Sequence record: MT768059.1
DNA: 52,782 nt
Source of the DNA: Escherichia phage vB_EcoM_swi3
Direction: 5' to 3' (one strand)
The notes beneath the pieces are model-generated. The model saw only the letters and a program-made list of their open reading frames with translations. It had not been told where the DNA came from and made no database searches. Below, one piece after another: positions 1 through 45,809 of this stretch. Positions within the stretch are counted from its first letter, which is position 1; each line of letters starts with the position of its first letter. The translations under genes were made by a program, and so were the position numbers.

Positions 1-121
1 ACTTAGAGGTGTCTATATGTATGATCCGGTTTATCTCTTTATTAATATCAGAACCGGATGAAAAAAATTTACGCTGGCGAAAAAAATAAAAAAGCCGGAT
101 TGATAAATAAATCTGTAGACG

Positions 122-150
122 TTTACACTATAAAAAAGATGTGTTACAAT
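122..150 (+). promoter_or_regulatory. sigma70-like promoter (TTTACA-N17-TACAAT) upstream of 205..636
   Basis: Hexamers and 17-nt spacing read directly; 8-bp inverted repeat ATCCGGTT/AACCGGAT lies upstream at ~21..56. Confidence 0.45.
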
Positions 151-204
151 ATTTATCAATGTTGCTGATTACCAAATCTTTGGATTATATACGAGGCTGA
201 ATAA

Positions 205-636
205 ATGGTTAATATAAGACAGAAAGGACAGAACTTTGAGCGTAAAATGGCTAAGAAGTTCAATAGCTCGTTCGGATTAACTGTTGAGCGCAATCTTCAA
301 CAGTCTATTAATGGCGGGGATGACTTGCTGGGTGTACCGTTTTTCAGTGTTGAACTGAAGAAGCACAATACCAAGTCTATCGGAACATGGTGGAGACAGT
401 GTGCGGCATCGGCAAAGGCTCAGAACAAGATGCCGGTACTGATATACGAACTACCAAGAAAACAGCCTACCGTGGTGATGAATAAGGCTGATGTGATTGA
501 CTGTTTTCCAAGTGGCACGACTTTTAACGAGGCATCGAACCGCCTCTTTGTGGGTTTAGTAGAATTAACATGGGAACAATTTTGCCGGGTCTACAACTAT
601 TACGTTGCGCCCGGCACTCAATATCACGTCAATTAA
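205..636 (+). CDS. PD-(D/E)XK-fold nuclease, possibly Hjc/RecU-like Holliday junction resolvase
   Basis: 143 aa; N-terminal GQNFERK, then GGDDLL ... SVELKK matching D...(E)xK spacing of PD-(D/E)XK nucleases. Confidence 0.45.
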   Translation: MVNIRQKGQNFERKMAKKFNSSFGLTVERNLQQSINGGDDLLGVPFFSVELKKHNTKSIGTWWRQCAASAKAQNKMPVLIYELPRKQPTVVMNKADVIDCFPSGTTFNEASNRLFVGLVELTWEQFCRVYNYYVAPGTQYHVN

Positions 637-818
637 TCTTGTTTCAGCTCGTCACAAATGACACGCTGATTTTTGGCAGGGATAATACCAAGATTTAGCA
701 GGGTGTATGGACTATCAGCGACGCATTGTTCAACGGTAGTCCATTCAGGTTTGGATTCAACAATTTCGTAATTACAGTCGTGAGCTGCAATACATGTTGA
801 CAGTATTAAGCCAATCAC
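633..818 (-). CDS. hypothetical protein (GTG start)
   Basis: ORF continuing the leftward array; AGGTGA Shine-Dalgarno-like upstream; competes with antisense ORF 794..982. Confidence 0.25.
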   Translation of the reverse strand: MIGLILSTCIAAHDCNYEIVESKPEWTTVEQCVADSPYTLLNLGIIPAKNQRVICDELKQD

Positions 819-993
819 AAGTAATCACCTTCAACCAGGAACTCAAACAGCTGGTTGTAAACGTTGCAACCTTTAGCGAAAGAGCTTTCAGCAGGTTTAC
901 CGTCGCGGACGATCATCATATACTCACCGCCATGAATATCAACCCAGTATTGCATGCCACCTTTGACAGGGTTACGTTGTAAGAATTTAAACA

Positions 994-1239
994 TTATTTG
1001 CTCCTGATTCCAAGTTTATTCAATAACCAAATTGTCATGTCAACCCAGGTTAACGGTACAGTTTTCGGGGGTTGATAATCCCAGCAGCTTGCAGTTCTTT
1101 GTATTTCTGCTTGGCGCCGCTCCGCTTCGCGTAATACCGCATCGTCAGAAGTGCCGGCAGAAAAAAGATCGGTAACACCAGATAAATCGCGTTGATTAAC
1201 ACGTCGAGCAATGTCATATAAATCATCCTTAGAAAACAT
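994..1239 (-). CDS. hypothetical early protein
   Basis: 81-aa ORF downstream of minus-strand promoter at 1492..1520. Confidence 0.4.
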   Translation of the reverse strand: MFSKDDLYDIARRVNQRDLSGVTDLFSAGTSDDAVLREAERRQAEIQRTASCWDYQPPKTVPLTWVDMTIWLLNKLGIRSK

Positions 1240-1466
1240 AAGCCAATACCATAAGAATTATCAGAAAGACCACAACCAGCTTCCTCATCGCCCGACCTTC
1301 AGCATATGCAGGATTCACAACAGAATACTCAACAACATGTTTACAGCGGACCATAAGGCCTCCACTTGTGGGTTAATTCAAGCATGAGGACTTTCATCAA
1401 ATCCTCAGGATTGAATTAATTACCAGCTTTTAATCAAGCCCTGTCAGCGCCAGGACTTGACTAATA

Positions 1467-1670
1467 TCACTCTATCATTACCTGAACTACTATTATACAC
1501 TCTTTATTGAAGCGAGTAAACACTTTTCCACCATTAGTGCGTTTAGCCCCAGATTTTAGAGCTGACTGGCACCAGATATGCCACTCCTCAACTGTCAAGA
1601 ATTTTTGCTCAGCTTTGGGTGGCAATCCATTGGCAAGGTCTACCGTAGTAAATTTGACTAGTGGCATCAC
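1467..1670 (-). CDS. hypothetical early protein
   Basis: 67-aa ORF, 4-nt overlap with upstream ORF 1667..2056. Confidence 0.4.
   Translation of the reverse strand: MMPLVKFTTVDLANGLPPKAEQKFLTVEEWHIWCQSALKSGAKRTNGGKVFTRFNKECIIVVQVMIE
1492..1520 (-). promoter_or_regulatory. sigma70-like promoter (TTTACT-N17-TATAAT) on minus strand
   Basis: Reverse complement reads gTTTACTcgcttcaataaagagtgTATAAT; embedded in 3' end of ORF 1467..1670. Confidence 0.45.
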
Positions 1671-2056
1671 TTGACCTCAAATTTTGACTCGTCGTATTCC
1701 GGATCAGTCACGTCCCGGGTCGCACAATTTTTGATTGCTTCCCAGTAGCGTTGGGCGTCATCACCATCGACGTAAACCGTCCAGTGGCCGTAACCACCTT
1801 CAAATCTGTCCCAGGCTTGTTCCCAGACTTTGCCATCTTCCAGCTTGTACCAAGTTGGACGACTGTCAAACTCACGAATTGGATGGTACCCCATCAAGGG
1901 ATTCATCAGGTCGATAATGTCTTCCCGACTAATCTCCTGGTTCTCCCACAACACCGTCATGAATTGCTCAAACTTGAAGGCGTTTGGCAGAACTTTGAGT
2001 ACTTTACCGTCACAATATACGGTATAGATACCATCTTCGCATTTTGCACTGTACAT
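1667..2056 (-). CDS. hypothetical early protein
   Basis: 129-aa ORF in co-directional array. Confidence 0.5.
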   Translation of the reverse strand: MYSAKCEDGIYTVYCDGKVLKVLPNAFKFEQFMTVLWENQEISREDIIDLMNPLMGYHPIREFDSRPTWYKLEDGKVWEQAWDRFEGGYGHWTVYVDGDDAQRYWEAIKNCATRDVTDPEYDESKFEVK

Positions 2057-2129
2057 GTTTCTCTCTCCTGTTGATTGTGAATAATTTCAAAAATGAACTA
2101 TCACAACTTTGGACAGTTCATTGTTGAAA

Positions 2130-2318
2130 CTATGCTAACTTTGTTGCGATCTGAATTGTCAGCCGGAAATCTTCCATCAAGTTATCAAACTCTTTGGAAC
2201 CACCAACAGCATCAGATATTTGATCTTTCACAATTTGGGCATTTGATTCCAGTAATTCAATCAGGTGCGCCAATTCGTCTTCAGTCAATTTCAGATCTTT
2301 CATAATGCATCCACCCAA
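2130..2318 (-). CDS. hypothetical small acidic protein
   Basis: 62 aa, about 12 D/E vs 6 K/R. Confidence 0.4.
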   Translation of the reverse strand: MGGCIMKDLKLTEDELAHLIELLESNAQIVKDQISDAVGGSKEFDNLMEDFRLTIQIATKLA

Positions 2319-2557
2319 GCCATAACTTTTGCCAGTCTTACAACGTCTTCATGGTCCCGCTCGCCATCAGAAAATTCGCTGGCGATGATACCCATAATTG
2401 ACGCCAGATTCATGTTGATGATGTAGGCGTGTTGGCGCACTTCATCAATTCCTGAATCTATCACCAGTTCCGCAAATTCTTGTGAACCTTCATCCCATTC
2501 AGCCCAATACTGCTCAGCATAAAAGTCCAGTTCTTTTTTCATCTCAATGTCAGTCAT
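2300..2557 (-). CDS. hypothetical small acidic protein
   Basis: 85 aa, about 20 D/E vs 6 K/R. Confidence 0.45.
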   Translation of the reverse strand: MTDIEMKKELDFYAEQYWAEWDEGSQEFAELVIDSGIDEVRQHAYIINMNLASIMGIIASEFSDGERDHEDVVRLAKVMAWVDAL

Positions 2558-2562
2558 TTTGA

Positions 2563-2763
2563 TTACTCCTCAGAACCTGAAAATTTGTCGTCAATGGCTT
2601 CAACAATATAATCAAGAGTTGAAGTGTGAGAACTATCAGAAAAAGTGCCCATCTTCTCTAACTCAATCATCATATCACGCAAGGCCATCGCCTGGTCTTT
2701 GGTCAGTTTGATTTTAAGCATGTTTCTCTCCTGTTGATTGCGAATAACTTTCATTGATGGCAC
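2563..2763 (-). CDS. hypothetical small acidic protein
   Basis: 66 aa, acidic C-terminus. Confidence 0.4.
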   Translation of the reverse strand: MPSMKVIRNQQERNMLKIKLTKDQAMALRDMMIELEKMGTFSDSSHTSTLDYIVEAIDDKFSGSEE

Positions 2764-2785
2764 TACTTGAGCGCCATCTCAAAAA

Positions 2786-3355
2786 TTACTCTTCAGTTTC
2801 TTGTGCTTCAGTTTCAGGTTTTACTTCAGTATCAGGTTTTTTGCCAGTTACTGATTTGCCTTCGGTCACTTTACCAGATTTTACATCATTACGGTAGTAT
2901 GACATATATGACTGGATAACACGTTTTGCCTTAATATCATCCGCTTCCATTCCGCAAGCTTTCATCGCATCAGCGAGCGCCAATTTGGAGTCTTCCTTAT
3001 CCATCAGGTTGTAATCTTTGAACACCAGATAGCAGGTATCTTTAGTTGACGGACCAGATGACGATTTGCGAGAGCCACCAGCGGATGCTCGTGTTGTCGC
3101 AACTTTGACTTCTTCAACTTCCAGTTGGTTCAGCTCGTCAAACAAAGCCTTCACCAGCACTTCTTTGGAGTCTTTGACGCTTACAGTACTTTCATCATTA
3201 AGCGACTTAATCATCTTAATGATCTGGTTGTTGGCAAAGTACTGAAGACTATCCATCTGCACTACAATAGTGCCAAGACTTTCAGTAGTCAAACCAGATT
3301 TCACAGACTCGACAGAAAAAGCGGAAGTCAGGTAAACGTAGTTGATAGTTGTCAT
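2786..3355 (-). CDS. hypothetical protein with acidic C-terminal tail
   Basis: Start placed at internal ATG (3355) preceded by GAGGA; ORF-track start 3424 lies in palindrome GACAACTT..AAGTTGTC. Confidence 0.45.
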   Translation of the reverse strand: MTTINYVYLTSAFSVESVKSGLTTESLGTIVVQMDSLQYFANNQIIKMIKSLNDESTVSVKDSKEVLVKALFDELNQLEVEEVKVATTRASAGGSRKSSSGPSTKDTCYLVFKDYNLMDKEDSKLALADAMKACGMEADDIKAKRVIQSYMSYYRNDVKSGKVTEGKSVTGKKPDTEVKPETEAQETEE

Positions 3356-3450
3356 TTGATGTATCCTCGTTGATAGAATTTTTGATATGTGCCAATCCTT
3401 GGCAAGTAAGTCCAAACATGACAACTTTTGTCAAGTTGTCATGATTGAAA

Positions 3451-3753
3451 TCACTTCGCGCTTGCGTTTTCAACGGCTTGTACAACTTTCAACAAATGCC
3501 TGAAGTCATCATGATAGATTTCATTAAAGCCATCTGCCGCAAAGTTTTCGCCAATTAAGATCAGTCTTTCGCGGACCAAGTCAATCAATAGTTTATTGTC
3601 AGTTATTTCCGCACCTGTAACAAGTTCAACAAATAATTGCTGTACGTTATCGCAACGGATGTTACTTTCAATACACACTTGGCGCATGTCTTCAACTATT
3701 GACATGATTGTGACTTGCATTTCTACGTCAGAAGTGATGTTATTCAGTTTCAT
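3451..3753 (-). CDS. hypothetical small acidic protein
   Basis: 100 aa, about 17 D/E vs 9 K/R; first gene of leftward array next to control region. Confidence 0.45.
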   Translation of the reverse strand: MKLNNITSDVEMQVTIMSIVEDMRQVCIESNIRCDNVQQLFVELVTGAEITDNKLLIDLVRERLILIGENFAADGFNEIYHDDFRHLLKVVQAVENASAK

Positions 3754-3953
3754 AATAGTTACCTTTGTACTAGTTTCCAGGTGTGACTACTGTTACCAAT
3801 AGTCACTAGTTGAAACTACTACTTGTGTTACTATCAACAAGAAACATGTTACCAAATTGTTAAAGAGCAAAAGGTACCATTGACATCTACCAGATGTACC
3901 TGTTGACTGGTTAAGTACTACCTACCTAATCTAAACCATACCAATATCCTTTA

Positions 3954-3970
3954 GACCAGTTAGACTGGTC
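3954..3970. promoter_or_regulatory. perfect palindrome GACCAGT-TAG-ACTGGTC (putative operator)
   Basis: 7-bp arms with 3-bp spacer read directly; half-site GACTGGT recurs at 3905..3911. Confidence 0.4.
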
Positions 3971-4138
3971 AATCAGTCATCACATTCAATAAATATATAA
4001 TAGACCAATCGCTATTGATTGTACATAAAAGAATTGCAAGTTTATGCAAGTTTTTAGAAATGATAATCACTTGCGATTGATAGTGGTTCTCATATACAAT
4101 TGATATAGTTTCACATGTAATTATTCAACTCAAAATGG

Positions 4139-4370
4139 TCGGCAGGGGTTATAATAACATAGGGGTGCCACTTAAAGGAGCCGGCGAAATTATTTCTAAA
4201 AATATAATTTCAATCTGAATTATAGACGCTTTGTACTATAACGGCCGAAGTAGTTCACACGGTAATTGTACCAATCATAATAGTTACCAGAGTAATCATT
4301 TCAATTGAAATAGGTGCGGCGGGGGGTAATTTCGCAGGGGTGCTACCTGCCAGGAGCCAGCGGAATTTTT
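4139..4370. repeat. two copies of a ~57-bp GC-rich element, period ~176 bp
   Basis: 4139..4196 and 4315..4370 share GyCGGCrGGGG ... AGGGGTGCyAC ... AGGAGCCrGCGrAATT; flanked by AT-rich DNA. Confidence 0.5.
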
Positions 4371-4588
4371 TTATTTTTTGGTATTTTCTCCTTATCAGGA
4401 CCAATCATCATCAGAGTGATACGACAGGAGCTAACCTTTTGCCTAACACAATAATAAGTGAAGCCCCTCTAAAATTTTTTTATATTTTTCGGAAATTGTG
4501 TAGACACTCACTAAAAAGTGGTGTACTTTCTCTCCTCCACGCGCTATCATTAATGTGAATCATCAAACGGCCTCACGGTCTCCTACTT

Positions 4589-5086
4589 GTGGGTAACATT
4601 ATGAAAATTGTTCAATTAGAGCCATATCCGCCTCAATTGGCTATCGTTTGCAGCGAAAAAGAGCACGAAGAGCTCCAAAAACTGATGGATTTGCCTGATT
4701 TTGGCAACTGGAATGACCGAGAAACACGTACTGCATCTACCTTTACGTTCTCTCGCGTTAATTATCCGTACCTGTTAATTGTCGTCGAACTGTACCACCC
4801 GGACGACCTGAAGTACAACACCATTTCCCACGAAGGCATTCACGTAATGTCGTCGCTGATGAACTATGTTGGCCTTAAATACGACCCAGAAAACGATGAA
4901 TGGTACGCATATCAGCATGATTTCATCGTAAATGCCATTTGTAAGGCCCATGACGAGTACATTGAGCGCCAAAAAACGCCAAAAACTAAGCCAAAAATCG
5001 AAACAGGTAACCATCCTGCAATACTGCCACAAGACGTTATGAACTCGCTTTTGACTGACACTACTGGGGACTTTTTAGGTGATTAA
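4589..5086 (+). CDS. hypothetical protein with HExxH motif (possible small zinc metallopeptidase)
   Basis: 165 aa; motif ISHEGIHV; first gene of rightward block. Confidence 0.4.
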   Translation: MGNIMKIVQLEPYPPQLAIVCSEKEHEELQKLMDLPDFGNWNDRETRTASTFTFSRVNYPYLLIVVELYHPDDLKYNTISHEGIHVMSSLMNYVGLKYDPENDEWYAYQHDFIVNAICKAHDEYIERQKTPKTKPKIETGNHPAILPQDVMNSLLTDTTGDFLGD

Positions 5087-5753
5087 TATTATCTTTGCAA
5101 TGGGCCAAAATGGGGAATTCGGGTTATCTCCGGAGTTTATGAAGCATCAGGTTGACTCGTGCAAGACCATGGAAGAGGTTCGTGCACTTCCTAAATCGGG
5201 TCTACCCTGGAAATGTCAGTCAGACATGCTCTTTTTCAGGACTATGACTAATTCAATTGCGACAGAACCAGGCTATAATGCATATCAGCAACTACGTGGA
5301 CAATTCCCAAATGACCAGTTGCGAAACATGATAGCAGATGTAACGGTAAAAATGGTCGGACATAGTGTATTGTTAGCCGGTCGTAAAACGTATATGACTA
5401 TGAGTCTGCCTATGTCAGCCCACAGAATACTGCTGCCGGTATCTCGCCAGATTATGGCTTCAGAAGGCTACAATAATCTGGGTGAGATGGCCGCAGACCT
5501 TGAGTCCAGAGGTACTGACGTCTGGATTGTAGGGGGTGCCGAGTTGATACTTTCGGCCCTTGAAGAACACGCAAAAGACTTACTCCGTATCGACAACATG
5601 TTTATCAGTACGATCAAGCAATCAGGTCCAAGTGATATTTTAATGGATTGTAGCAAATTAATGATGTACATTGATAGCGACTTCACTTATAATGATGAAT
5701 ATGTTGATAACAAACAAGTGCTGATACAACGCTACAGGAGTTTACACAAATGA
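5079..5753 (+). CDS. dihydrofolate reductase-like protein
   Basis: 224 aa; LPW, GRKTY and VGGAEL blocks match DHFR conserved blocks (compare E. coli FolA, T4 Frd), with insertions; GTG start. Confidence 0.65.
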   Translation: MINIIFAMGQNGEFGLSPEFMKHQVDSCKTMEEVRALPKSGLPWKCQSDMLFFRTMTNSIATEPGYNAYQQLRGQFPNDQLRNMIADVTVKMVGHSVLLAGRKTYMTMSLPMSAHRILLPVSRQIMASEGYNNLGEMAADLESRGTDVWIVGGAELILSALEEHAKDLLRIDNMFISTIKQSGPSDILMDCSKLMMYIDSDFTYNDEYVDNKQVLIQRYRSLHK

Positions 5754-6256
5754 ACATCATAATCGAGGGGCCCGACAATGCTGGTAAAAGTACACTTATT
5801 GAGTTCCTTAAATCTCGTACTGGCCGCGATGTTATTCATAATACTGTTGATAAAGACCCCGAATCGGTCATGGCTAAACAGGCCAAAGAAAACGCGTTGG
5901 AAGGCAATTGCATTTATGACCGTAGCGCTGTTATATCTGAGTATATCTATTGTCTGGTTCTTCAACGTACGCCTGTCATCAATATTAATGTATCACATGT
6001 AGCAGATATGTGTGACAACGCCATCGTTATCTTTTGTATGCCACCTGTTGAAAAGGTACTGGCAACTACAAAAGACGAGATGCCTGGTGTTGTGGAAAAT
6101 CTTGAGGCGTTATACAATCAGTATGACAACCTCATTGACGAGCTGGTTATGATGAGTAAGCAGTTCTTCATTTACGACTGGACTGTTGAAGAAGACGGTC
6201 CTGAAGCAGTTCTCGAATATATCAACGAACGTATTAATAAGGAGTGGAACAAATGA
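5750..6256 (+). CDS. thymidylate kinase-like dNMP kinase
   Basis: 168 aa; P-loop IIIEGPDNAGKST and YDRS motif as in Tmk (IVIEGLEGAGKTT / DRH). Confidence 0.7.
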   Translation: MNIIIEGPDNAGKSTLIEFLKSRTGRDVIHNTVDKDPESVMAKQAKENALEGNCIYDRSAVISEYIYCLVLQRTPVININVSHVADMCDNAIVIFCMPPVEKVLATTKDEMPGVVENLEALYNQYDNLIDELVMMSKQFFIYDWTVEEDGPEAVLEYINERINKEWNK

Positions 6257-7733: not shown

Positions 7734-9182
7734 ATGAATCTTGACTTTCACCTGCATGACAGACAAGGTGCCGCTCTGCAGTCTCAGGCAACTGAGATTC
7801 TATACGGTGGTGCTGCTGGTGGTGGTAAGTCTCACCTTATGCGTGTAATGTCAATTATCATGTGCTGCATGATACCTGACTTGCAGATTTACCTTTTCCG
7901 CCGAAACTATAACGACCTTACGGCTAACCATATGGTTGGTCCCACAAGTTATCCTGCCTTGCTGGACGGTATGTGCAAAGCTGGCAAGTGCAAGATTAAC
8001 TACTCGAGCAACACGATTAAATTCTGGAACGGTGCGAACATCAAGCTCTGCCACCTCCAGTACGAAAAAGATATTTATACATACCAGGGTGCGGAGATTC
8101 ACGTTCTGCTGATGGATGAGCTTACTCACTTCACAGAAACGATGTACCGCTTCTTGCGTAACCGTGTCCGACTCGGTGCTCTCAAAGTCCCTGAGAACTT
8201 TTTCCGGCCACTGCCACTCATCTTTTGTGGGTCAAACCCCGGTGGGGTTGGTCACAACTGGGTTAAGCGCACTTTTGTAACTGCTGCTCCTCCGATGAAA
8301 ATCGTTAAGCAGGAAAAACGCGAAGGCGGTATGGCGCGTCAGTACATTCCGGCTAAGATGACTGATAACCCTACGCTGATGGAAAACGACCCTGACTACG
8401 GTGACCGTCTTGAAGGTCTTGGTGACCCGGCTCTTGTTGCTGCGATGAAAGAGGGTGACTGGGATATTGTTGCTGGTGGTGCGCTTGACGACGTATGGTC
8501 AACCAAGTGTATTCTGCCGCGTATGCGTATTCCGAAAGGCTGGACTATCGAACGTTCTCTCGACTGGGGGTCTACTCACCCGTTCTCTGTTGGTATCTGG
8601 GCTATTGCAAATGGTGCCTCGCTTACAGACGACGAAGGCAATGAGTACTTTATTCCGCGTGGTTCAATTATACGTATAGCTGAATGGTATGGGTGCTCTG
8701 AAAAAGAAGCTAACAGGGGTATTAAATTATCTGCTGCCGAAGTCGCTCAAGGTATTATTCGTCTACAGGAAAATCTGCAGGCTGGTGGCTGGATTCAAAG
8801 CAACGTTAATCCTGGTCCGGCAGATAGTCAGATTTATGCGTGCAAGGAAAAAGACGTCGAGACTATCGCGAAGAAAATGGAAGACGAAGGCGTAACCTGG
8901 GTCAAGGCCGACAAGTCGCAAGGTTCGAGAATAAATGGCTTAGAGCTATTCCGTCAGCTTCTGAAAAATGTTAAGATGGACGAAACGGAAAAGCCGGGCA
9001 TTTATTTCATGGAAAACTGTCCAGCAGCCATAAACACGTTGCCGGTTCTGCCGCGTGACAAGAACAACACGGAAGATGTCGACACGAACTCTGAAGACCA
9101 CGTATACGATGATTGTCGTTACATGGTGTTGCGTGGCATCAACCGTTATACTACCAAGCTCAAAATAAATATGGGACGGTAA
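7734..9182 (+). CDS. terL: terminase large subunit
   Basis: 482 aa; Walker A-like LYGGAAGGGKSH, Walker B-like LLMDELTH, C-terminal nuclease-sized domain. Confidence 0.8.
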   Translation: MNLDFHLHDRQGAALQSQATEILYGGAAGGGKSHLMRVMSIIMCCMIPDLQIYLFRRNYNDLTANHMVGPTSYPALLDGMCKAGKCKINYSSNTIKFWNGANIKLCHLQYEKDIYTYQGAEIHVLLMDELTHFTETMYRFLRNRVRLGALKVPENFFRPLPLIFCGSNPGGVGHNWVKRTFVTAAPPMKIVKQEKREGGMARQYIPAKMTDNPTLMENDPDYGDRLEGLGDPALVAAMKEGDWDIVAGGALDDVWSTKCILPRMRIPKGWTIERSLDWGSTHPFSVGIWAIANGASLTDDEGNEYFIPRGSIIRIAEWYGCSEKEANRGIKLSAAEVAQGIIRLQENLQAGGWIQSNVNPGPADSQIYACKEKDVETIAKKMEDEGVTWVKADKSQGSRINGLELFRQLLKNVKMDETEKPGIYFMENCPAAINTLPVLPRDKNNTEDVDTNSEDHVYDDCRYMVLRGINRYTTKLKINMGR

Positions 9183-9183
9183 A

Positions 9184-10746
9184 ATGTCGATAACCCCAAG
9201 CAGCACGCCGAACGTCGGATACCAGCGTCCTGAGCTGACTAAGAACGCTGGTAAGTACCGAATGATTAAGGACTGCATCGAGGGTCAGGAAGCTGTTAAA
9301 GCACGCGGTGATTTCTACTTGCCCCGACCTGACCCTACGAACTGCACAGAAGAAAACCTGATGCGGTACAATTCGTACCTGCGTCGCGCTGTGTTCTATA
9401 ACGTACTACAGCGAACTCTTTCGGGTATGACTGGCCTGGTATTCCAGCAGCAGCCTGAGATGCTGATGCCTGACGATATGGAAGTGCTGAAAGTAAATAT
9501 CGACGGTGCAGGCATTGGCGCTATTCAGCAAATGCGTAAGTGCTTCAAGTCTGTTCTGGCTTTTGGTCGCGCAGGTCTGCTGACTGACTTCCCTAAAGCA
9601 CGTATCGGTGAGTTTGGCGAGTCCATTGGCTTTACACGTAAAGAGCTGATGGATGGAGATGTACAGCCGACAGTAACGCTGTATATGCCATGGCAGATTA
9701 TAAACTGGCGGGAAGAGTATCGCAACGGTAAAGTGATGCTCACTCAGGTTGTCATTTGCGAACAGATACCGGGGGTTACTGATGGCTTTCAGCAAGACTA
9801 CACACCCGTGTGGCGTCACCTTTACCTGGATGAAGAAGGCAATTGCAACCAGTCTTTGTGGGTCAATAAGGGCGACAAGAATGCGCAGAACGTCTCCGGT
9901 GGTGCGTTGTATGTCACGCAAGAAAATGTTGTCTTACGCGACTCCAACGGCTTACCGCTGAAGTTTATTCCGTTCCAGTTTATTGGTTCTGAAACAAACA
10001 GCGCTGAGATTGACCCTCCGCCGATGTACGACTTAGCTGTGCTTAATATTGCACACTACCGTAACTCTGCTGACTACGAAGAGTCATGCTTCGTAACAGG
10101 TCAACCCACAGTATGGGCGTCTGGACTTACTGAGGCATGGGTTGAAGATGTTCTGAAGGGTGAATTGCGACTCGGTTCGTTTGGTGGTATTCCGCTGCCG
10201 GCTAACGCCGCTGTAGGTATTATCCAGACCAACCCTAACACCCAGCCGTTTGAAGCGATGAAGCAAAAAGAAGCACAGATGATTGCAATCGGTGCTCGTC
10301 TGATTCGTGAGAATGGTAAGGTAGAACGACGCGAAGTTGAGATTAAGAATGAAGCGGCGTCTGAAGCTTCGCTTATCGTAACTGTTGCGCAGAACGTTGA
10401 AGCTGCTTATCGTAAGGCAATCGAATGGTGTGGCCTGTTCTACGGACACCCTAAAGAAGAAATTACGATTAACCTCAGCTACAACTTCATCTATAGCCAG
10501 TTGACTTATCAAGAACGTCAGCAGCTGGTTAACGAATGGATTGCCGGTGCTATCACGTTTAGTGAAATGCGTAGCAATCTTAAACAAGCTGGCATTGCTA
10601 AGCTCACCGATGAAGAAGCCAAGAAGCTAATTGACGAAGAGCTGGCTGAACGCGATGCGCGTGAGGTAGCAAAAGAAGCAGAAAAGAACGCTCAAGCAGC
10701 TAAGAACAGCGATGGGCAGGAAAATAATCCAGAAAAAACTGAATAA
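9184..10746 (+). CDS. portal protein
   Basis: 520 aa directly after terL; size and position typical. Confidence 0.6.
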   Translation: MSITPSSTPNVGYQRPELTKNAGKYRMIKDCIEGQEAVKARGDFYLPRPDPTNCTEENLMRYNSYLRRAVFYNVLQRTLSGMTGLVFQQQPEMLMPDDMEVLKVNIDGAGIGAIQQMRKCFKSVLAFGRAGLLTDFPKARIGEFGESIGFTRKELMDGDVQPTVTLYMPWQIINWREEYRNGKVMLTQVVICEQIPGVTDGFQQDYTPVWRHLYLDEEGNCNQSLWVNKGDKNAQNVSGGALYVTQENVVLRDSNGLPLKFIPFQFIGSETNSAEIDPPPMYDLAVLNIAHYRNSADYEESCFVTGQPTVWASGLTEAWVEDVLKGELRLGSFGGIPLPANAAVGIIQTNPNTQPFEAMKQKEAQMIAIGARLIRENGKVERREVEIKNEAASEASLIVTVAQNVEAAYRKAIEWCGLFYGHPKEEITINLSYNFIYSQLTYQERQQLVNEWIAGAITFSEMRSNLKQAGIAKLTDEEAKKLIDEELAERDAREVAKEAEKNAQAAKNSDGQENNPEKTE

Positions 10747-14539: not shown

Positions 14540-15162
14540 TGGCAACTGGAGTAGACCCGGAACTGCAAGCGCAGCTGGATAAGCTAACAACTGCTGTCCA
14601 GCTCATTCATGACTTCGGTATGTCAGACGACCCAAATATCCCTAACCCGGAAGGTGGTGTCATACGCACACTCGAAGGCATTAACGCTGCAATCAATGAA
14701 GCTATACCAAACTTTGAAAACGCTAACGAAGCTGCTATACAGGCACGTGCTGCTCGTGATGCGGCTATTGCAGCCAAAGAAGCTGCAGAAACCGCAGCTG
14801 AACAGGCCACAGTAGCTTCGACGTCAGCAATCTATGAGTACGGCAACGTTGCAAGTGCAGCTACAGTGACTATACCAGCTGCAGCTAAAACAATTGTCAG
14901 CCTTACTCTTAACCAGCCAAACACCGTAATTAATATCGGTGGTGTATCTGACCCGTCTACTGTTGCGCGTCAGATTACTATTGCTATTAAGCAAGGCACT
15001 GGTTCTAACAAGGTGACTTCTTGGGATCCAAGAATAAAATGGGCCAACAACAGGAAGCCCGTTCTGTCATTCCTTGTGGGTTACACAGATGTTGTTACGT
15101 TGCTGACCTTTGACTCAGGCGCAACTTGGATGGGTTTCTTTAACGGTGGATGGATTAAATAA
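14539..15162 (+). CDS. hypothetical structural protein
   Basis: 207-aa ORF, Ala-rich helical N-terminus. Confidence 0.4.
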   Translation: MATGVDPELQAQLDKLTTAVQLIHDFGMSDDPNIPNPEGGVIRTLEGINAAINEAIPNFENANEAAIQARAARDAAIAAKEAAETAAEQATVASTSAIYEYGNVASAATVTIPAAAKTIVSLTLNQPNTVINIGGVSDPSTVARQITIAIKQGTGSNKVTSWDPRIKWANNRKPVLSFLVGYTDVVTLLTFDSGATWMGFFNGGWIK

Positions 15163-18119
15163 TGCACACGATGTTGCTTAAAGACGGATCAGACCATCGA
15201 GCTAATGTCGAAAGCCTTATCGAAGGTCACCACCATTTTCTTGAGCGCAATACTGGCAGAACTGACGACGCTACGCGTCAGCACTATATCTTCAACCCAG
15301 AAGGAGTAGTGTCGAACAACCGCCACTTTATTGCGCACACTATGATGGAGTACCAACCTAACGGTGATGCTCCGTCTGAAAGTCAGTCGCTGCTAATACT
15401 CGGTGAAATTCACGCGTACCTTGCTACTAAGGAACAGCGGTACCTGGACAAAGCAATTGAGTACTTCAATGCTTACGTCAAGTACTATTACGAGGGGGAC
15501 CCCATCCCTGATACTCCTCGTCGCTGGATCGCTAACTGGCTTTGTAACGGCAAAGAGCCTGTGCTAGCCAGCTTTCCTATCAACCCTGATTCACCAACAC
15601 AAGGCGGATATAAAAATGTGCCAGTTAAATTTGTTAACGGCAAAGCACAAATCCCTCATGGTTCTCCTTTCTGGGGCGAGTACCTGGATGTTGCTACTTG
15701 GGCCCACAGGGGACACATGGCTTGGCCTGCTATTAATGGTGGTGTCCGTGTTATTAAAAATAAAGTTGACTGGGACGATATTTACAACAATTATCGCATC
15801 ACTACCATGCCAGCTGACCCGTGGAATCAGTTAGCCTGGATTGACTGGCCGAGGTATCTGGGTGAACCAAGCTACACTGTGGACTGGTCAGCTGCTGAAC
15901 CTCCTGTACATCTCATCGAGTATATTGTTGCATGGACCAATAACAAGATTGGTGTTCTACCTGGCAAAAACGATGAGCTATGGGGAGGCGAGATTCTTGA
16001 GACTGGACTGCCTGACTCTCGCAGAGGTGAGATTCAACTCCGTGACCACACTGTTAACGGTGTGTATCTGCTTAACTATGCCGTTAAGCTTCCTGTTGAA
16101 CACGGTGGTTATTTGCTTAAGCGAAATGAAGTATGGCACAACAGACCTGTAAACGTTCCACTGTACGGCGAGCTTCAGCGAGGTAATGCTGCGGATGCTG
16201 AGTTGTGGTTCTGTGACTGCTGCTATATGCTGTGGCGAATTACTAACGAGCAAAAGTATTACAACGCTTGGCAAGCTGTCCTGTTTACACTGGAGGAGTA
16301 TATTGACATCGATAAACAAGACCAGTTCTTCCGACAAGACACTCACGCGTCGTCTCCGTTTACTGATGGCATCTCTTATGATTGGTCTTATCCTGAACTG
16401 GCACAAGCTATATATTCACGTGATGAAAATGGTTATATAGTTCTACGTCAGAACGAAAAAGCTCAGTCATCTCTGGAGCAACAGGCTGTATGGTTTAAGT
16501 GTAAGCCAACAGCTAAGATACGTACAGAGGTTGGTGGCAAAGATGATGCTGGTCAGAACATCAGTGTCAAAGTGGAAATGTACATGAACCGTGAAAAGGT
16601 TGACGTCGAGCAAAACATCTATCGTTTTGTAACACAGCTACCTGCTCTTGGTGCTTCGCCTGCTAACTACGACATTCCGTTAAGCGATTTTGTCGCAGGT
16701 ACTAAGCCAGACGGTTCTGAGTATATCTTAGCTGATATTCGTTCGTCCACTGATTACGGCAATGCCTCTATTGCAGTGTCTTACCGTACTGACATACTTG
16801 ACAACAGACGTGGCAACACTGTTCGTATGACAATACCGGATAGTTCGTCAGGTGCCATTATAGGCTTTTGGCTACTGGAATCTTCCCAGGCACCTTTAAA
16901 CTCGCTGACGTATACTTCTACAGGTCCGTTGTGCATCAAAGTAACTGACGCGCAAGGCTGGAGTTGGGTACGTGATTTACCTGCCGCGCCAGGCTGGGTA
17001 ACTCAGCAGATTCGCACATGGGAGTTCAGGCTGGCTTCATACCAGGAAAACACAGGTACACCACCAACTAGCCCACAATTCGGCGAGATTAAGCAGTTCT
17101 CGTTTGTACTGCCTGATGGTGTTAATACGTCGACAAGTATTAGCTGGTACTGTGTGAATGATGTTCCGCCTCGCTATAACTGGCCAATCGGCTATACGAT
17201 TAAGTATCGTCTTACTTTCTCGGCTGATAACCCGTACACAGCTAAGCTAGGCGACTGTACTGTGCTGGACTATGAGAATGATAACCTTGCTTACACGCCA
17301 GGTGTTATTCCGTTCTCCAACATTTATAACCCTGATTCTAAGCAGTTCGATGGTTGGCACGGTATACCTTACCCTGGTTATCAGTATCCGTTTGTCTTTA
17401 CGCATGACGATACTGCAGCAGGTACAATCAGGCTGAACAACATGGTTAACTTTTTGTACGATTCTCAGCAATGGTACTTTAAGAAGTTTGGTCAGCTAGG
17501 TCCTGGTGCATCTGCTTTTATCTGGAACCGTTGGGATAACTTTAAATACGGTGTACCTGATACGTTTACCATGTATCACTGGGGTAATGGTAGTGCATGG
17601 TCAGGTTACCAGCCTCGTGCTTATTTCTCCGCAGCACGTGGATGGTATGAGCTAGTAAACCGTGGTAAGCCAGTTCCGAGTAAGCTTATTGCTTATGTGG
17701 ATAACTGGTCAAAATGGTTGCTTGACTTCATGGAAAGGTCAGGAGGTGTGTCACCTTCTAACTTCCCACAAGAAGGTGTTGCTCTGCCAGTCCCTACAGA
17801 CTTCACAGGTCACATGTGCGGACTATGGCTTGCTGGTGCAGCTATGTCAGCCCTTTGTGGGTCAACAGTATCAGGACTTGATAAGCTGATGGACATGCTT
17901 GTCAATGAGCTGGAAGACCACTATGACATAACTGGTATTCCGGGGCACGTAATGGATGGTGGTTGGTCGCCAGCGTTACGCCTTGAAACTGGTACAGGAC
18001 CTGAAAGCAACGCCATGTACTATGGTTTTTACTCTGGCGAAATATTACGAGGGTTGGGCTTATACCTGCTGTACAAAAACAAAGGGGCTAAAGCAGATAT
18101 TTATGATTTAGGCCCGTAA
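15162..18119 (+). CDS. large Trp/Tyr-rich virion-associated protein (possible glycanase/depolymerase)
   Basis: 985-aa uninterrupted ORF; aromatic-rich composition typical of carbohydrate-active enzymes; function inferred only. Confidence 0.5.
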   Translation: MHTMLLKDGSDHRANVESLIEGHHHFLERNTGRTDDATRQHYIFNPEGVVSNNRHFIAHTMMEYQPNGDAPSESQSLLILGEIHAYLATKEQRYLDKAIEYFNAYVKYYYEGDPIPDTPRRWIANWLCNGKEPVLASFPINPDSPTQGGYKNVPVKFVNGKAQIPHGSPFWGEYLDVATWAHRGHMAWPAINGGVRVIKNKVDWDDIYNNYRITTMPADPWNQLAWIDWPRYLGEPSYTVDWSAAEPPVHLIEYIVAWTNNKIGVLPGKNDELWGGEILETGLPDSRRGEIQLRDHTVNGVYLLNYAVKLPVEHGGYLLKRNEVWHNRPVNVPLYGELQRGNAADAELWFCDCCYMLWRITNEQKYYNAWQAVLFTLEEYIDIDKQDQFFRQDTHASSPFTDGISYDWSYPELAQAIYSRDENGYIVLRQNEKAQSSLEQQAVWFKCKPTAKIRTEVGGKDDAGQNISVKVEMYMNREKVDVEQNIYRFVTQLPALGASPANYDIPLSDFVAGTKPDGSEYILADIRSSTDYGNASIAVSYRTDILDNRRGNTVRMTIPDSSSGAIIGFWLLESSQAPLNSLTYTSTGPLCIKVTDAQGWSWVRDLPAAPGWVTQQIRTWEFRLASYQENTGTPPTSPQFGEIKQFSFVLPDGVNTSTSISWYCVNDVPPRYNWPIGYTIKYRLTFSADNPYTAKLGDCTVLDYENDNLAYTPGVIPFSNIYNPDSKQFDGWHGIPYPGYQYPFVFTHDDTAAGTIRLNNMVNFLYDSQQWYFKKFGQLGPGASAFIWNRWDNFKYGVPDTFTMYHWGNGSAWSGYQPRAYFSAARGWYELVNRGKPVPSKLIAYVDNWSKWLLDFMERSGGVSPSNFPQEGVALPVPTDFTGHMCGLWLAGAAMSALCGSTVSGLDKLMDMLVNELEDHYDITGIPGHVMDGGWSPALRLETGTGPESNAMYYGFYSGEILRGLGLYLLYKNKGAKADIYDLGP

Positions 18120-45749: not shown

Positions 45750-45809
45750 ATTCTCTCTCCTCATGTGTATAGAGGTATTATACACCACTTACATGGGGTA
45801 AGTACACTA

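Follow-up and report, generated by a model that had tools for sequence, protein, structure and literature searches.

A small HExxH protein at the head of the rightward gene block of Escherichia phage vB_EcoM_swi3 represents a broad phage family of putative metal-dependent hydrolases

Examining the genome of Escherichia phage vB_EcoM_swi3 (sequence record MT768059.1; the whole stretch of 52,782 nucleotides is called the window here), a Rosemountvirus-type myovirus of about 52.8 kb whose type infects Salmonella and E. coli, we found that the first plus-strand open reading frame (ORF) after an 847-bp non-coding region between two divergent gene blocks encodes a small protein with the motif HEGIH, an instance of HExxH. 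A program-made ORF list gives the longest reading frame here as 4589 to 5086 on the plus strand, with a GTG start and 165 amino acids (aa), the length at which the sequence-only reading had described the protein. However, since all homologs have their N-terminus at the aligned Met of MKIVQLEPYP and GTG 4589 lies inside a conserved upstream block, TTGTGGGT, translation almost certainly starts at ATG 4601, judging from these alignments. Thus, the ORF and its motif stand, and the likely product is a protein of 161 aa with HEGIH at residues 77-81.

The HExxH ORF is a real gene. Each of the 59 related phage genomes has a homolog; with 4 kb around the gene as the query, 59 phage records matched, 43 of them at >=80% query coverage and 45 at 90-99% identity. 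Substitutions relative to the vB_EcoM_IntR record number 5, 5 and 19 at codon positions 1, 2 and 3, and the comparison indicates that the gene is under purifying selection. In the GenBank record of vB_EcoM_IntR the ORF was left unannotated. That record (OM313460.1) contains Ns, and its identical length together with 5% divergence from the window suggests that one of the two assemblies is reference-guided. The protein is acidic (isoelectric point, pI, 4.9; family median 5.7), shows no obvious N-terminal hydrophobic or membrane stretch on inspection of its sequence by eye, and is the only member of its family in the window, with no paralog there.

Taken alone, the motif is not significant. It occurs once in those stop-to-stop frames of the window that reach 100 aa, 118 frames with 23,469 residues in all; the expected number of HExxH motifs is 0.024 from the composition of the protein itself and below 1 by a rough genome-size estimate, so that one HExxH per genome of this size is about what chance would provide. 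That the motif is non-random follows from its conservation across relatives. A word-indexed search returned only 10-11 close homologs. When 1.84 billion cluster representatives were searched exhaustively with a profile, 128 proteins (50%-identity clusters) matched at E<=1e-3, mostly 115-145 aa long and aligning across the entire core, residues 1-125. In an alignment of 131 relatives at about 20-30% identity, with a mean column identity of 15%, residues H77, E78, H81 and E100 are invariant (131/131 sequences), and Y104 (99%), A103 (92%), N98 (89%), G91 (89%) and D99 (82%) are strongly conserved, giving the signature HExxH-x18-E-x3-Y. The proposal of the sequence-only reading that HEGIH is a catalytic-type motif is borne out by this pattern.

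Among the relatives collected, 136 of 137 carry HExxH, nearly all with a Glu 19 residues past the second His; the one protein that lacks it, an 870-aa repeat protein, was treated as a false match. Because the search profile itself favors the motif columns, this conservation evidence is partly circular. An independent test, based on DNA, agrees with it: a degenerate pattern for H-E-x2-H-x16-N-x-E-x2-A-Y, scanned on viral contigs, matched at least 120 stretches, and among the matches listed, 119 of 120 hold an ORF that fits the full-length family hidden Markov model (HMM). The viral-contig members form at least 73 clusters at 50% identity, and no run of 7-10 columns is conserved in the broad family alignment.

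The family coincides with a group that has so far carried no function. The query matches phrog_1365, annotated as function unknown, over residues 1-127 at E=1.1e-27, all 131 aligned relatives match phrog_1365 as well, and the homologs of cr128_1 and sortregn are labelled VOG3488. With a median length of 131 aa, its members are spread over phages of Proteobacteria, gut Bacteroidota and marine Flavobacteriia, including those of Enterobacteria, Pseudomonas and Acinetobacter, and are found in crAss-like phages and an Eggerthella phage as well. Literature searches on the phrog_1365 and VOG3488 identifiers found nothing, and those on the phage genera found no account of the HExxH gene or its transcript timing.

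All family members but one sit in phage genomes or viral contigs. The exception, and the sole plasmid-database match of the family, is NZ_CP067310.1, a non-mobilizable E. coli "plasmid" of 53,474 bp; the record is Rosemountvirus-sized, and what was deposited under the name of a plasmid may be a phage genome, or a phage in a carrier or pseudolysogenic state. A 96%-identical homolog is found in PP583539.1 ("Listeria phage 220426122051"), a record that the 4-kb query retrieved together with the Rosemountviruses of Salmonella and E. coli; its Listeria monocytogenes host label looks doubtful, with contamination or mislabelling as possible sources. Two distant members (P0068 and P0015) are fusions: one joins the HExxH core to a C-terminal WYL_2/Sm-like beta-barrel (E=1.5e-9), and the other, of 388 aa, joins it to a long extension ending in a CxxC...CxxC (Cys4) ribbon. 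Such rare fusions could hint that, in some lineages, the core is coupled to a ligand or to nucleic acid.

An AlphaFold2 model computed with the 131-sequence alignment reached a mean predicted local distance difference test score (pLDDT) of 90.8 and a predicted template modeling score (pTM) of 0.77, with 10-residue blocks at 92-98 over residues 1-130; an earlier AlphaFold run on 11 close homologs reached a pLDDT of 51 and was discarded. The model has four predicted strands, beta1 (2-5), beta2 (12-16), beta3 (45-51) and beta4 (58-64), and four predicted helices, 19-28, 37-42, 72-90 with HExxH, and 100-125 beginning at E100. Their order is b-b-a-a-b-b-helix(HExxH)-helix(E100), and a 9-residue loop joins the last two helices. 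The HExxH helix is modeled at a pLDDT of about 98, with H77 and H81 one helical turn apart.

In a minimal zincin, the N-terminal HEXXH subdomain has a mixed sheet with three or more strands, and the C-terminal subdomain may be no more than one helix bearing the third ligand; the whole measures about 110 aa and is often acidic (PMC3890501). The order of elements in the model fits a minimal Glu-zincin as defined in that work. Of the two fold types named for checking in the sequence-only reading, the gluzincin-like one thus agrees with the predicted order, an HExxH helix followed by the E100 helix, and the metzincin-like one was set aside because HExxHxxGxxH is absent: the sequence that follows the motif, HEGIHVMSSLMNY, lacks the Gly at +3 and the His at +6, and the family conserves neither of them.

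Weak sequence links lead in the same direction. Among 50 members, sub-threshold Pfam matches comprise SprT-like (4/50, best E=3e-4), Peptidase_M78 (3/50, 4e-4) and DUF5700, a "putative zinc peptidase" (6/50), and two members match the phrog_87 "metallo-protease" at E=2.8e-5. The faint matches to DUF5700 and Peptidase_M91 run from the HExxH helix to the Glu helix. As far as sequence profiles can tell, these sub-threshold links lead only to zincin families.

From the conserved signature and the model, we consider the protein to be a metal-dependent hydrolase that is soluble, acidic and stand-alone and has a site of the Glu-zincin type. A small zinc peptidase is the likeliest form of it, and we give this reading a probability of roughly 0.55. 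H77 and H81 on one helix and E100, which starts the next, would hold the metal; E78 would serve as the general base that activates a water molecule, and Y104, one turn past E100, would help to stabilize the transition state. As in minimal zincins, the upper wall of the substrate cleft would be built from the four-strand sheet and the helix at the N-terminus. Host RNA polymerase would read the gene from a conserved sigma-70-like promoter of its own at the head of the rightward block, and the protein would be made within the infected cell; its substrate would be a protein or peptide, and no dedicated partner gene would be involved. Metal binding, hydrolysis, a peptide substrate and the time of expression are features that we infer for it.

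Several results weigh against this reading. A Foldseek search of 350,542 PDB chains with the model returned nothing at E<=0.001 (best E 0.085, template modeling (TM) score about 0.25), and no zincin structure is among its best 50 matches. From H81 there are 9 residues to the end of the helix, and E100 opens the following one, so that the 9-residue loop must fold back for E100 to contact the metal. Searches of Pfam and NCBIfam gave nothing above threshold for the query, for the members (sets of 50 and 131) or for the family consensus; a PDB profile search gave no match, even for the consensus; and hhalign of the family profile with E. coli SprT (YggI) gave 5.7% over 21 columns, in the motif region only. 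HExxH also occurs in enzymes that are not peptidases. HHpred on the fHy-Eco03 homolog reported "no significant hits" (supplement of PMC8145870), and the mini-Glu-zincin M95 had no detectable peptidase activity (PMC3890501), the motif being no guarantee of activity. Thus, the minimal zinc metallopeptidase proposed from sequence gains from signature conservation and element order and loses from the missing match to any solved zincin or to a Pfam, NCBIfam or PDB profile.

The Foldseek PDB matches (among them alarmone synthetase, SucA and GTPases) are generic alpha/beta structures at TM scores of about 0.25 and were read as noise, and the PDB-sequence matches, to designed SAKe repeat proteins that share "YDPExDEW", the AdoMetDC prozyme and ApoA-IV, were spurious. 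Among viral predicted structures in BFVD, 26 match the model at E<=1e-3; nearly all are "uncharacterized" and two are labelled SprT-like. One weaker BFVD neighbor is a PolyVal metallopeptidase (E=0.1, TM score 0.39). These three labels speak for the peptidase reading.

The protein shares with the Glu-zincins (MEROPS subclan MA(E), with thermolysin in M4 and aminopeptidase N/LTA4 hydrolase in M1) a helix-borne HExxH, a Glu on the next helix as the candidate third ligand and a conserved Tyr near the site. The HExxH-x18-E spacing is the signature of family M1 and is close to that of thermolysin. In contrast to these enzymes, the phage family has a core of about 125 residues rather than more than 300, no sequence or Foldseek similarity to any solved member, E100 at the first helical turn rather than within the helix, and the context N-D-E-x-x-A-Y rather than one of the ExxSD/NExxSD type.

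In size and element order it resembles the mini-zincins Acel_2062/DUF1025 (PDB 3E11) and M95 proabylysin, which are likewise soluble, acidic proteins of about 105-130 aa and combine a reduced mixed sheet and a helix with the HExxH helix and a C-terminal subdomain of minimal size. However, DUF1025 (PF06262) is an Asp-zincin with HEXXHXXGXXD where the phage protein reads HEGIHVMSSLM, and the third ligand of M95 is a His. Moreover, DUF1025 and M95 are bacterial or archaeal, whereas the phage family is found nearly entirely in phages and viral contigs. Membership in DUF1025 was rejected: its motif is absent, there is no Pfam or PDB profile match, and 3E11 is not among the best 50 Foldseek matches.

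The small HExxH domains of SprT-like, Spartan and Wss1 proteins (PF10263, WLM) deserve separate mention, since the SprT-like label is attached automatically to some members and structural neighbors. A DNA-dependent protease of this type that clears protein obstacles from replicating phage DNA would agree with these labels, namely the two BFVD neighbors and the four members with weak Pfam matches, with the gene adjoining DNA polymerase in four phages and with the one member fused to a WYL_2/Sm-like barrel. In SprT-type sites the third ligand is a His, whereas the conserved third residue here is a Glu (E100) and no His is conserved after the motif. The hhalign result, confined to the motif region, led us to reject the label, and no Spartan or Wss1 structure is among the best 50 Foldseek matches. 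The protein is also acidic, as is the family at large, and therefore unsuited to DNA binding. We regard this explanation as very unlikely.

Two further groups resemble the family as metalloproteases of mobile elements. ImmA/IrrE proteins (Peptidase_M78, PF06114, COG2856) are HExxH + Glu metalloproteases of similar core size that are mobile-element-encoded; the His-to-Glu spacing of the phage family differs from theirs, and all profile matches are sub-threshold. No XRE or helix-turn-helix (HTH) gene is annotated beside the family gene in 11 contexts, and of the 51 Pfam families matched in 149 pooled neighbors, the 25 most frequent include no HTH family. Polyvalent-protein/ArdC zincin domains (MPTase-PolyVal) are likewise metallopeptidase domains of mobile elements involved in host conflict, with the one PolyVal neighbor in BFVD; unlike them, the phage protein is stand-alone, not a giant multidomain protein, and has no ssDNA-binding domain. 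In ArdC, the C-terminal metalloprotease domain is described as able to serve anti-restriction (PMC7213743). The protein is best placed in a new, uncharacterized family among the HExxH metallohydrolases: the comparisons with metzincins, DUF1025, SprT-like and M78 proteins established no membership in a curated family, and its fold has no solved counterpart detectable in these searches.

Beyond the core, a clade-specific C-terminal tail is modeled at low confidence and is probably disordered. By length, it is missing from most family members, and two motifs in it, IETGNHP and DFLGD, are kept in homologs down to about 37% identity. In zymogens of the mini-Glu-zincins, C-terminal segments occlude the cleft; at a guess, the tail here could be a partner-docking segment or an auto-inhibitory one that occludes the cleft. 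In the homolog of Salmonella phage SPHG1, TKPKIETGNH is inserted near residue 37 and missing from the C-terminal tail; this displaced segment is probably an assembly or rearrangement artifact in the 47-kb record.

In the window the gene is followed in the rightward block by a DHFR-like gene (5079-5753), a deoxynucleoside monophosphate (dNMP) kinase gene (5750-6256), three genes of unknown function, the large terminase gene (7734-9182) and the portal gene (9184-10746). Eleven annotated homologs, HMM-verified at 61-106 bits and all with the signature, show varied settings. In KP34-like Klebsiella and Enterobacter podoviruses the gene lies directly upstream of the family-A DNA polymerase gene and overlaps it, in Guernseyvirinae it lies directly downstream of DNA polymerase, and in Flavobacterium and Tenacibaculum phages it is found close to a DnaQ-like exonuclease gene or to SSB and NinG. 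It comes after the lysis genes in Serratia phage Eta and the crAss-like cr128_1, in E. coli phage sortregn there is an overlap with the start of a 541-aa gene that precedes portal, and in FpV4 it is upstream of endolysin and terminase.

Some of these settings would suit a metal-dependent enzyme that is not a peptidase and acts on a small-molecule, nucleotide, nucleic-acid or cell-wall-linked amide substrate in DNA or nucleotide metabolism. The gene directly precedes the DHFR-like and dNMP kinase genes in the window, abuts or overlaps a family-A DNA polymerase gene in four unrelated phages, and is near an exonuclease, SSB or NinG in others. The DNA of phage fHy-Eco03 withstands many restriction enzymes, suggesting that it is modified (PMC8145870), and the nucleotide-metabolism genes here may therefore serve DNA modification. 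The lack of a match to a solved peptidase fold and the use of HExxH outside peptidases would also be in keeping with such an enzyme, as would weak matches of 3 members to TIGR04267 (E>=0.018). However, adjacency to replication genes is not general: among 149 neighbors from 73 viral-contig clusters, PolA and ligase were each found once, compared to portal 5 times and large terminase 5 times. Moreover, every weak profile link is to a peptidase family, and HExxH with a downstream Glu is the classical peptidase arrangement (PMC3890501). A non-peptidase enzyme is thus unlikely, and we retain the peptidase reading.

The same sample of 149 neighbors, most of them unannotated, contains two small terminase and two endolysin-type genes besides those named above, and no recurrent partner gene. 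Two ideas of a fixed neighbor, "upstream of terminase" and "next to DNA polymerase", were both dropped, as neither holds in the 73 clusters. The lack of a recurrent neighbor family suggests that the protein works without a dedicated partner. From its distribution in the genomes compared, the gene is core in the Rosemount/Loughborough lineage and accessory-like, at module boundaries, in most other lineages.

Upstream of the gene, a comparison of five phages whose HExxH proteins are 37-65% identical uncovered invariant non-coding blocks 50-100 nt 5' of the start, namely TAGACA, TAAAAAGTGGTGTACTTT and GCTATCATTA, which contain a pair of boxes resembling a sigma-70 promoter (Table 1). The element was found only through comparative alignment; a generic sigma-70 scan of the control region gave 9 sites versus 6.2 +/- 2.8, not above chance. 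No RNA-polymerase domain was found among 20 window proteins scanned, the largest ORFs included, and together with the conserved element this makes a dedicated promoter for host RNA polymerase plausible, with early expression of the gene as an inference from its position. The invariance of the 18-mer exceeds the needs of a -35 box, so that it may also be an operator. The A/T-rich tract directly 5' of the element is possibly UP-like. Closer to the gene, TGTGGGT is kept in all five phages and, as read from the sequence, fits the canonical Shine-Dalgarno weakly; TTGTGGGT is probably the ribosome-binding region. The earlier statement that this is the first rightward gene from the control region holds: it is the first plus-strand ORF past 3754-4600, with a conserved sigma-70-like element upstream.

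The pattern TGTAC[AT]-N16-18-TATNAT occurs 4 times in the window versus 0.21 expected, in a test that is post hoc, since two of the four sites suggested the pattern; it could represent a phage-specific promoter class. The minus-strand site at 45777-45806 has AAGTGGTGTA in common with the 18-mer. A putative conserved hairpin in the 5' untranslated region, in the stretch from the -10 box to the start codon, seemed compensatory on inspection by eye and was dropped because its folding energies could not be told from those of shuffled sequences (z -0.3 to -1.0).

Such a position raises the idea, already put forward in the sequence-only reading, of an early counter-defence or host-takeover protease that cleaves a host defence or stress regulator, a sub-case of the peptidase reading. 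In a wider form, phrog_1365 would comprise phage-specific minimal metalloproteases with a fold unlike solved structures that cleave a conserved bacterial protein, for example one of defence, stress or replication control, to the benefit of infection, a widely distributed class of "takeover protease" not recognized before; this generalization is speculative and on the unlikely side. For the protein in the window, the place as first gene past the control region and the conserved promoter-like element speak for such a role, as does the patchy, accessory-like distribution at module boundaries, among small unannotated genes, in other phages. In T7-like phages the region upstream of DNA polymerase is class II (middle) and holds several T7 host-takeover genes, and the family gene of KP34-like podoviruses lies in the DNA-metabolism region just upstream of that gene. 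However, in Eta and cr128_1 the place after the lysis genes suggests late expression, and there is no match to a PADLOC defence component or a known anti-defence family: the query, the members and the consensus gave nothing above threshold in PADLOC, where scattered single-member matches appeared at E>=5e-4 among the 131 members and none for the query. A toxicity screen of fHy-Eco03 proteins left out the homolog (PMC8145870). We regard a takeover role as conjecture, and as an unlikely one.

Proteomics of purified particles introduces a different explanation, a particle-associated protein that is structural or packaged and ejected. The fHy-Eco03 homolog gp12 (L004 3967-4461) was seen by tandem mass spectrometry coupled to liquid chromatography (LC-MS/MS) of purified particles and annotated as "putative structural protein" (PMC8145870), and portal and terminase are the commonest recognizable neighbors on viral contigs. 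However, 48 of 81 fHy-Eco03 proteins were flagged on a loose threshold, a DHFR-like protein and a resolvase included, and the family member of fHeKpn01, gp20 (L009 3330-3686), is unflagged in a record that also has LC-MS/MS-based annotations, which together weaken the virion reading. An invariant catalytic Glu would moreover not be expected of a purely structural role, and we find a particle protein improbable.

The annotation of phage S144 (MT663719.1) points to yet another function. Its ORF01, a 65%-identical homolog (L015 2501-3010), is labelled "putative Ku protein" through an InterPro SPOC-like superfamily match, which would make the family Ku-like or SPOC-domain DNA-end-binding proteins. 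No Ku or SPOC structure is among the best 50 Foldseek matches and no Pfam Ku match was found, the protein is acidic, and its conserved residues are a metal-hydrolase set; this identity is almost certainly wrong. The "putative Ku protein" label could spread to related records.

Among small phage genes, five residues that are invariant or nearly so while the rest diverges to about 20-30% identity offer a mechanistic handle of rare clarity. The family is large, phylogenetically broad and tractable, and has neither a Pfam or NCBIfam model in the copies searched nor a solved structure. Should it prove to be an active protease, the substrate could lay open a pressure point that bacterial cells have in common and that very different phages exploit, and the protein would add a new minimal scaffold to the zincins; if it is inactive or non-proteolytic, it would caution against inferring function from HExxH. 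Moreover, Rosemountviruses are under development for the biocontrol of Salmonella and E. coli, so that a core gene for a probable protease merits characterization.

Table 1. Features of the HExxH gene and of its upstream region, in window coordinates
Feature	Position	Strand	Remarks
Non-coding "control region"	3754..4600		847 bp; splits the leftward block of small genes (633-3753) from the rightward block; from ORF map and IntR annotation
A/T-rich tract TAAAATTTTTTTATATTTTT	4470..4489	+	Directly 5' of the promoter-like element; conserved in the five-phage alignment
Promoter-like element	4501..4552	+	Invariant across five phages; putative promoter
TAGACA	4501-4506	+	Invariant block in the promoter-like element
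18-mer TAAAAAGTGGTGTACTTT	4512-4529	+	Invariant in five phages; unique in the window
TGTACT (4522-4527), 17 nt, TATCAT (4545-4550)	4522-4550	+	Within invariant blocks
Conserved block TTGTGGGT	4587..4594	+	7-14 nt 5' of ATG 4601; contains GTG 4589
HExxH protein coding sequence	4601..5086	+	161 aa, stop codon counted in the coordinates; from ORF list, homolog starts and phrog_1365 match
Putative catalytic core (residues 1-125)	4601..4975	+	AlphaFold2; part common to the whole family
HEGIH codons (H77-E78-G-I-H81)	4829..4843	+	Two proposed zinc ligands and catalytic base
N98-D99-E100-W-Y-A103-Y104 codons	4892..4912	+	Proposed third metal ligand E100 and active-site Tyr Y104; N-terminus of helix 100-125
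Clade-specific C-terminal tail (residues 126-161)	4976..5083	+	pLDDT 59-71
Tail motif IETGNHP	4997-5017	+	
Tail motif DFLGD	5069-5083	+	
TGTAC[AT]-N16-18-TATNAT site	3997-4025	-	Pattern scan; faces leftward within the control region
TGTAC[AT]-N16-18-TATNAT site	5665-5693	+	Pattern scan
TGTAC[AT]-N16-18-TATNAT site	45777-45806	-	Pattern scan

Other features of the window lie outside the HExxH gene. In the gene annotated "DHFR" at 5079-5753, Pfam DHFR_1 covers residues 94-163 of 224 only (E=9.5e-7); by this match the DHFR-like product is atypical and carries a long extension at its N-terminus. In the structural block, a 985-aa ORF at 15162-18119 has no Pfam match.

The control region itself can be compared with the genome end of fHy-Eco03, which has a direct terminal repeat of 3,699 bp (1-3699) that holds the leftward block, the gp12 homolog being the first gene past the repeat (PMC8145870). 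The end of this repeat aligns at about position 4358 of the window. Three similar modules, at about 4161-4200, 4336-4380 and 4463-4489, each have a G-rich segment and, after it, a long T-run, as in GGGGTGC..GCC.GCG.AATTTTTTTATTTTTT, and no convincing hairpin was seen in them by eye. The modules are conserved in S144 and fHy-Eco03, and the repeat end of fHy-Eco03 maps in the second of them; they might be a repeat boundary, a packaging cut site or terminators.

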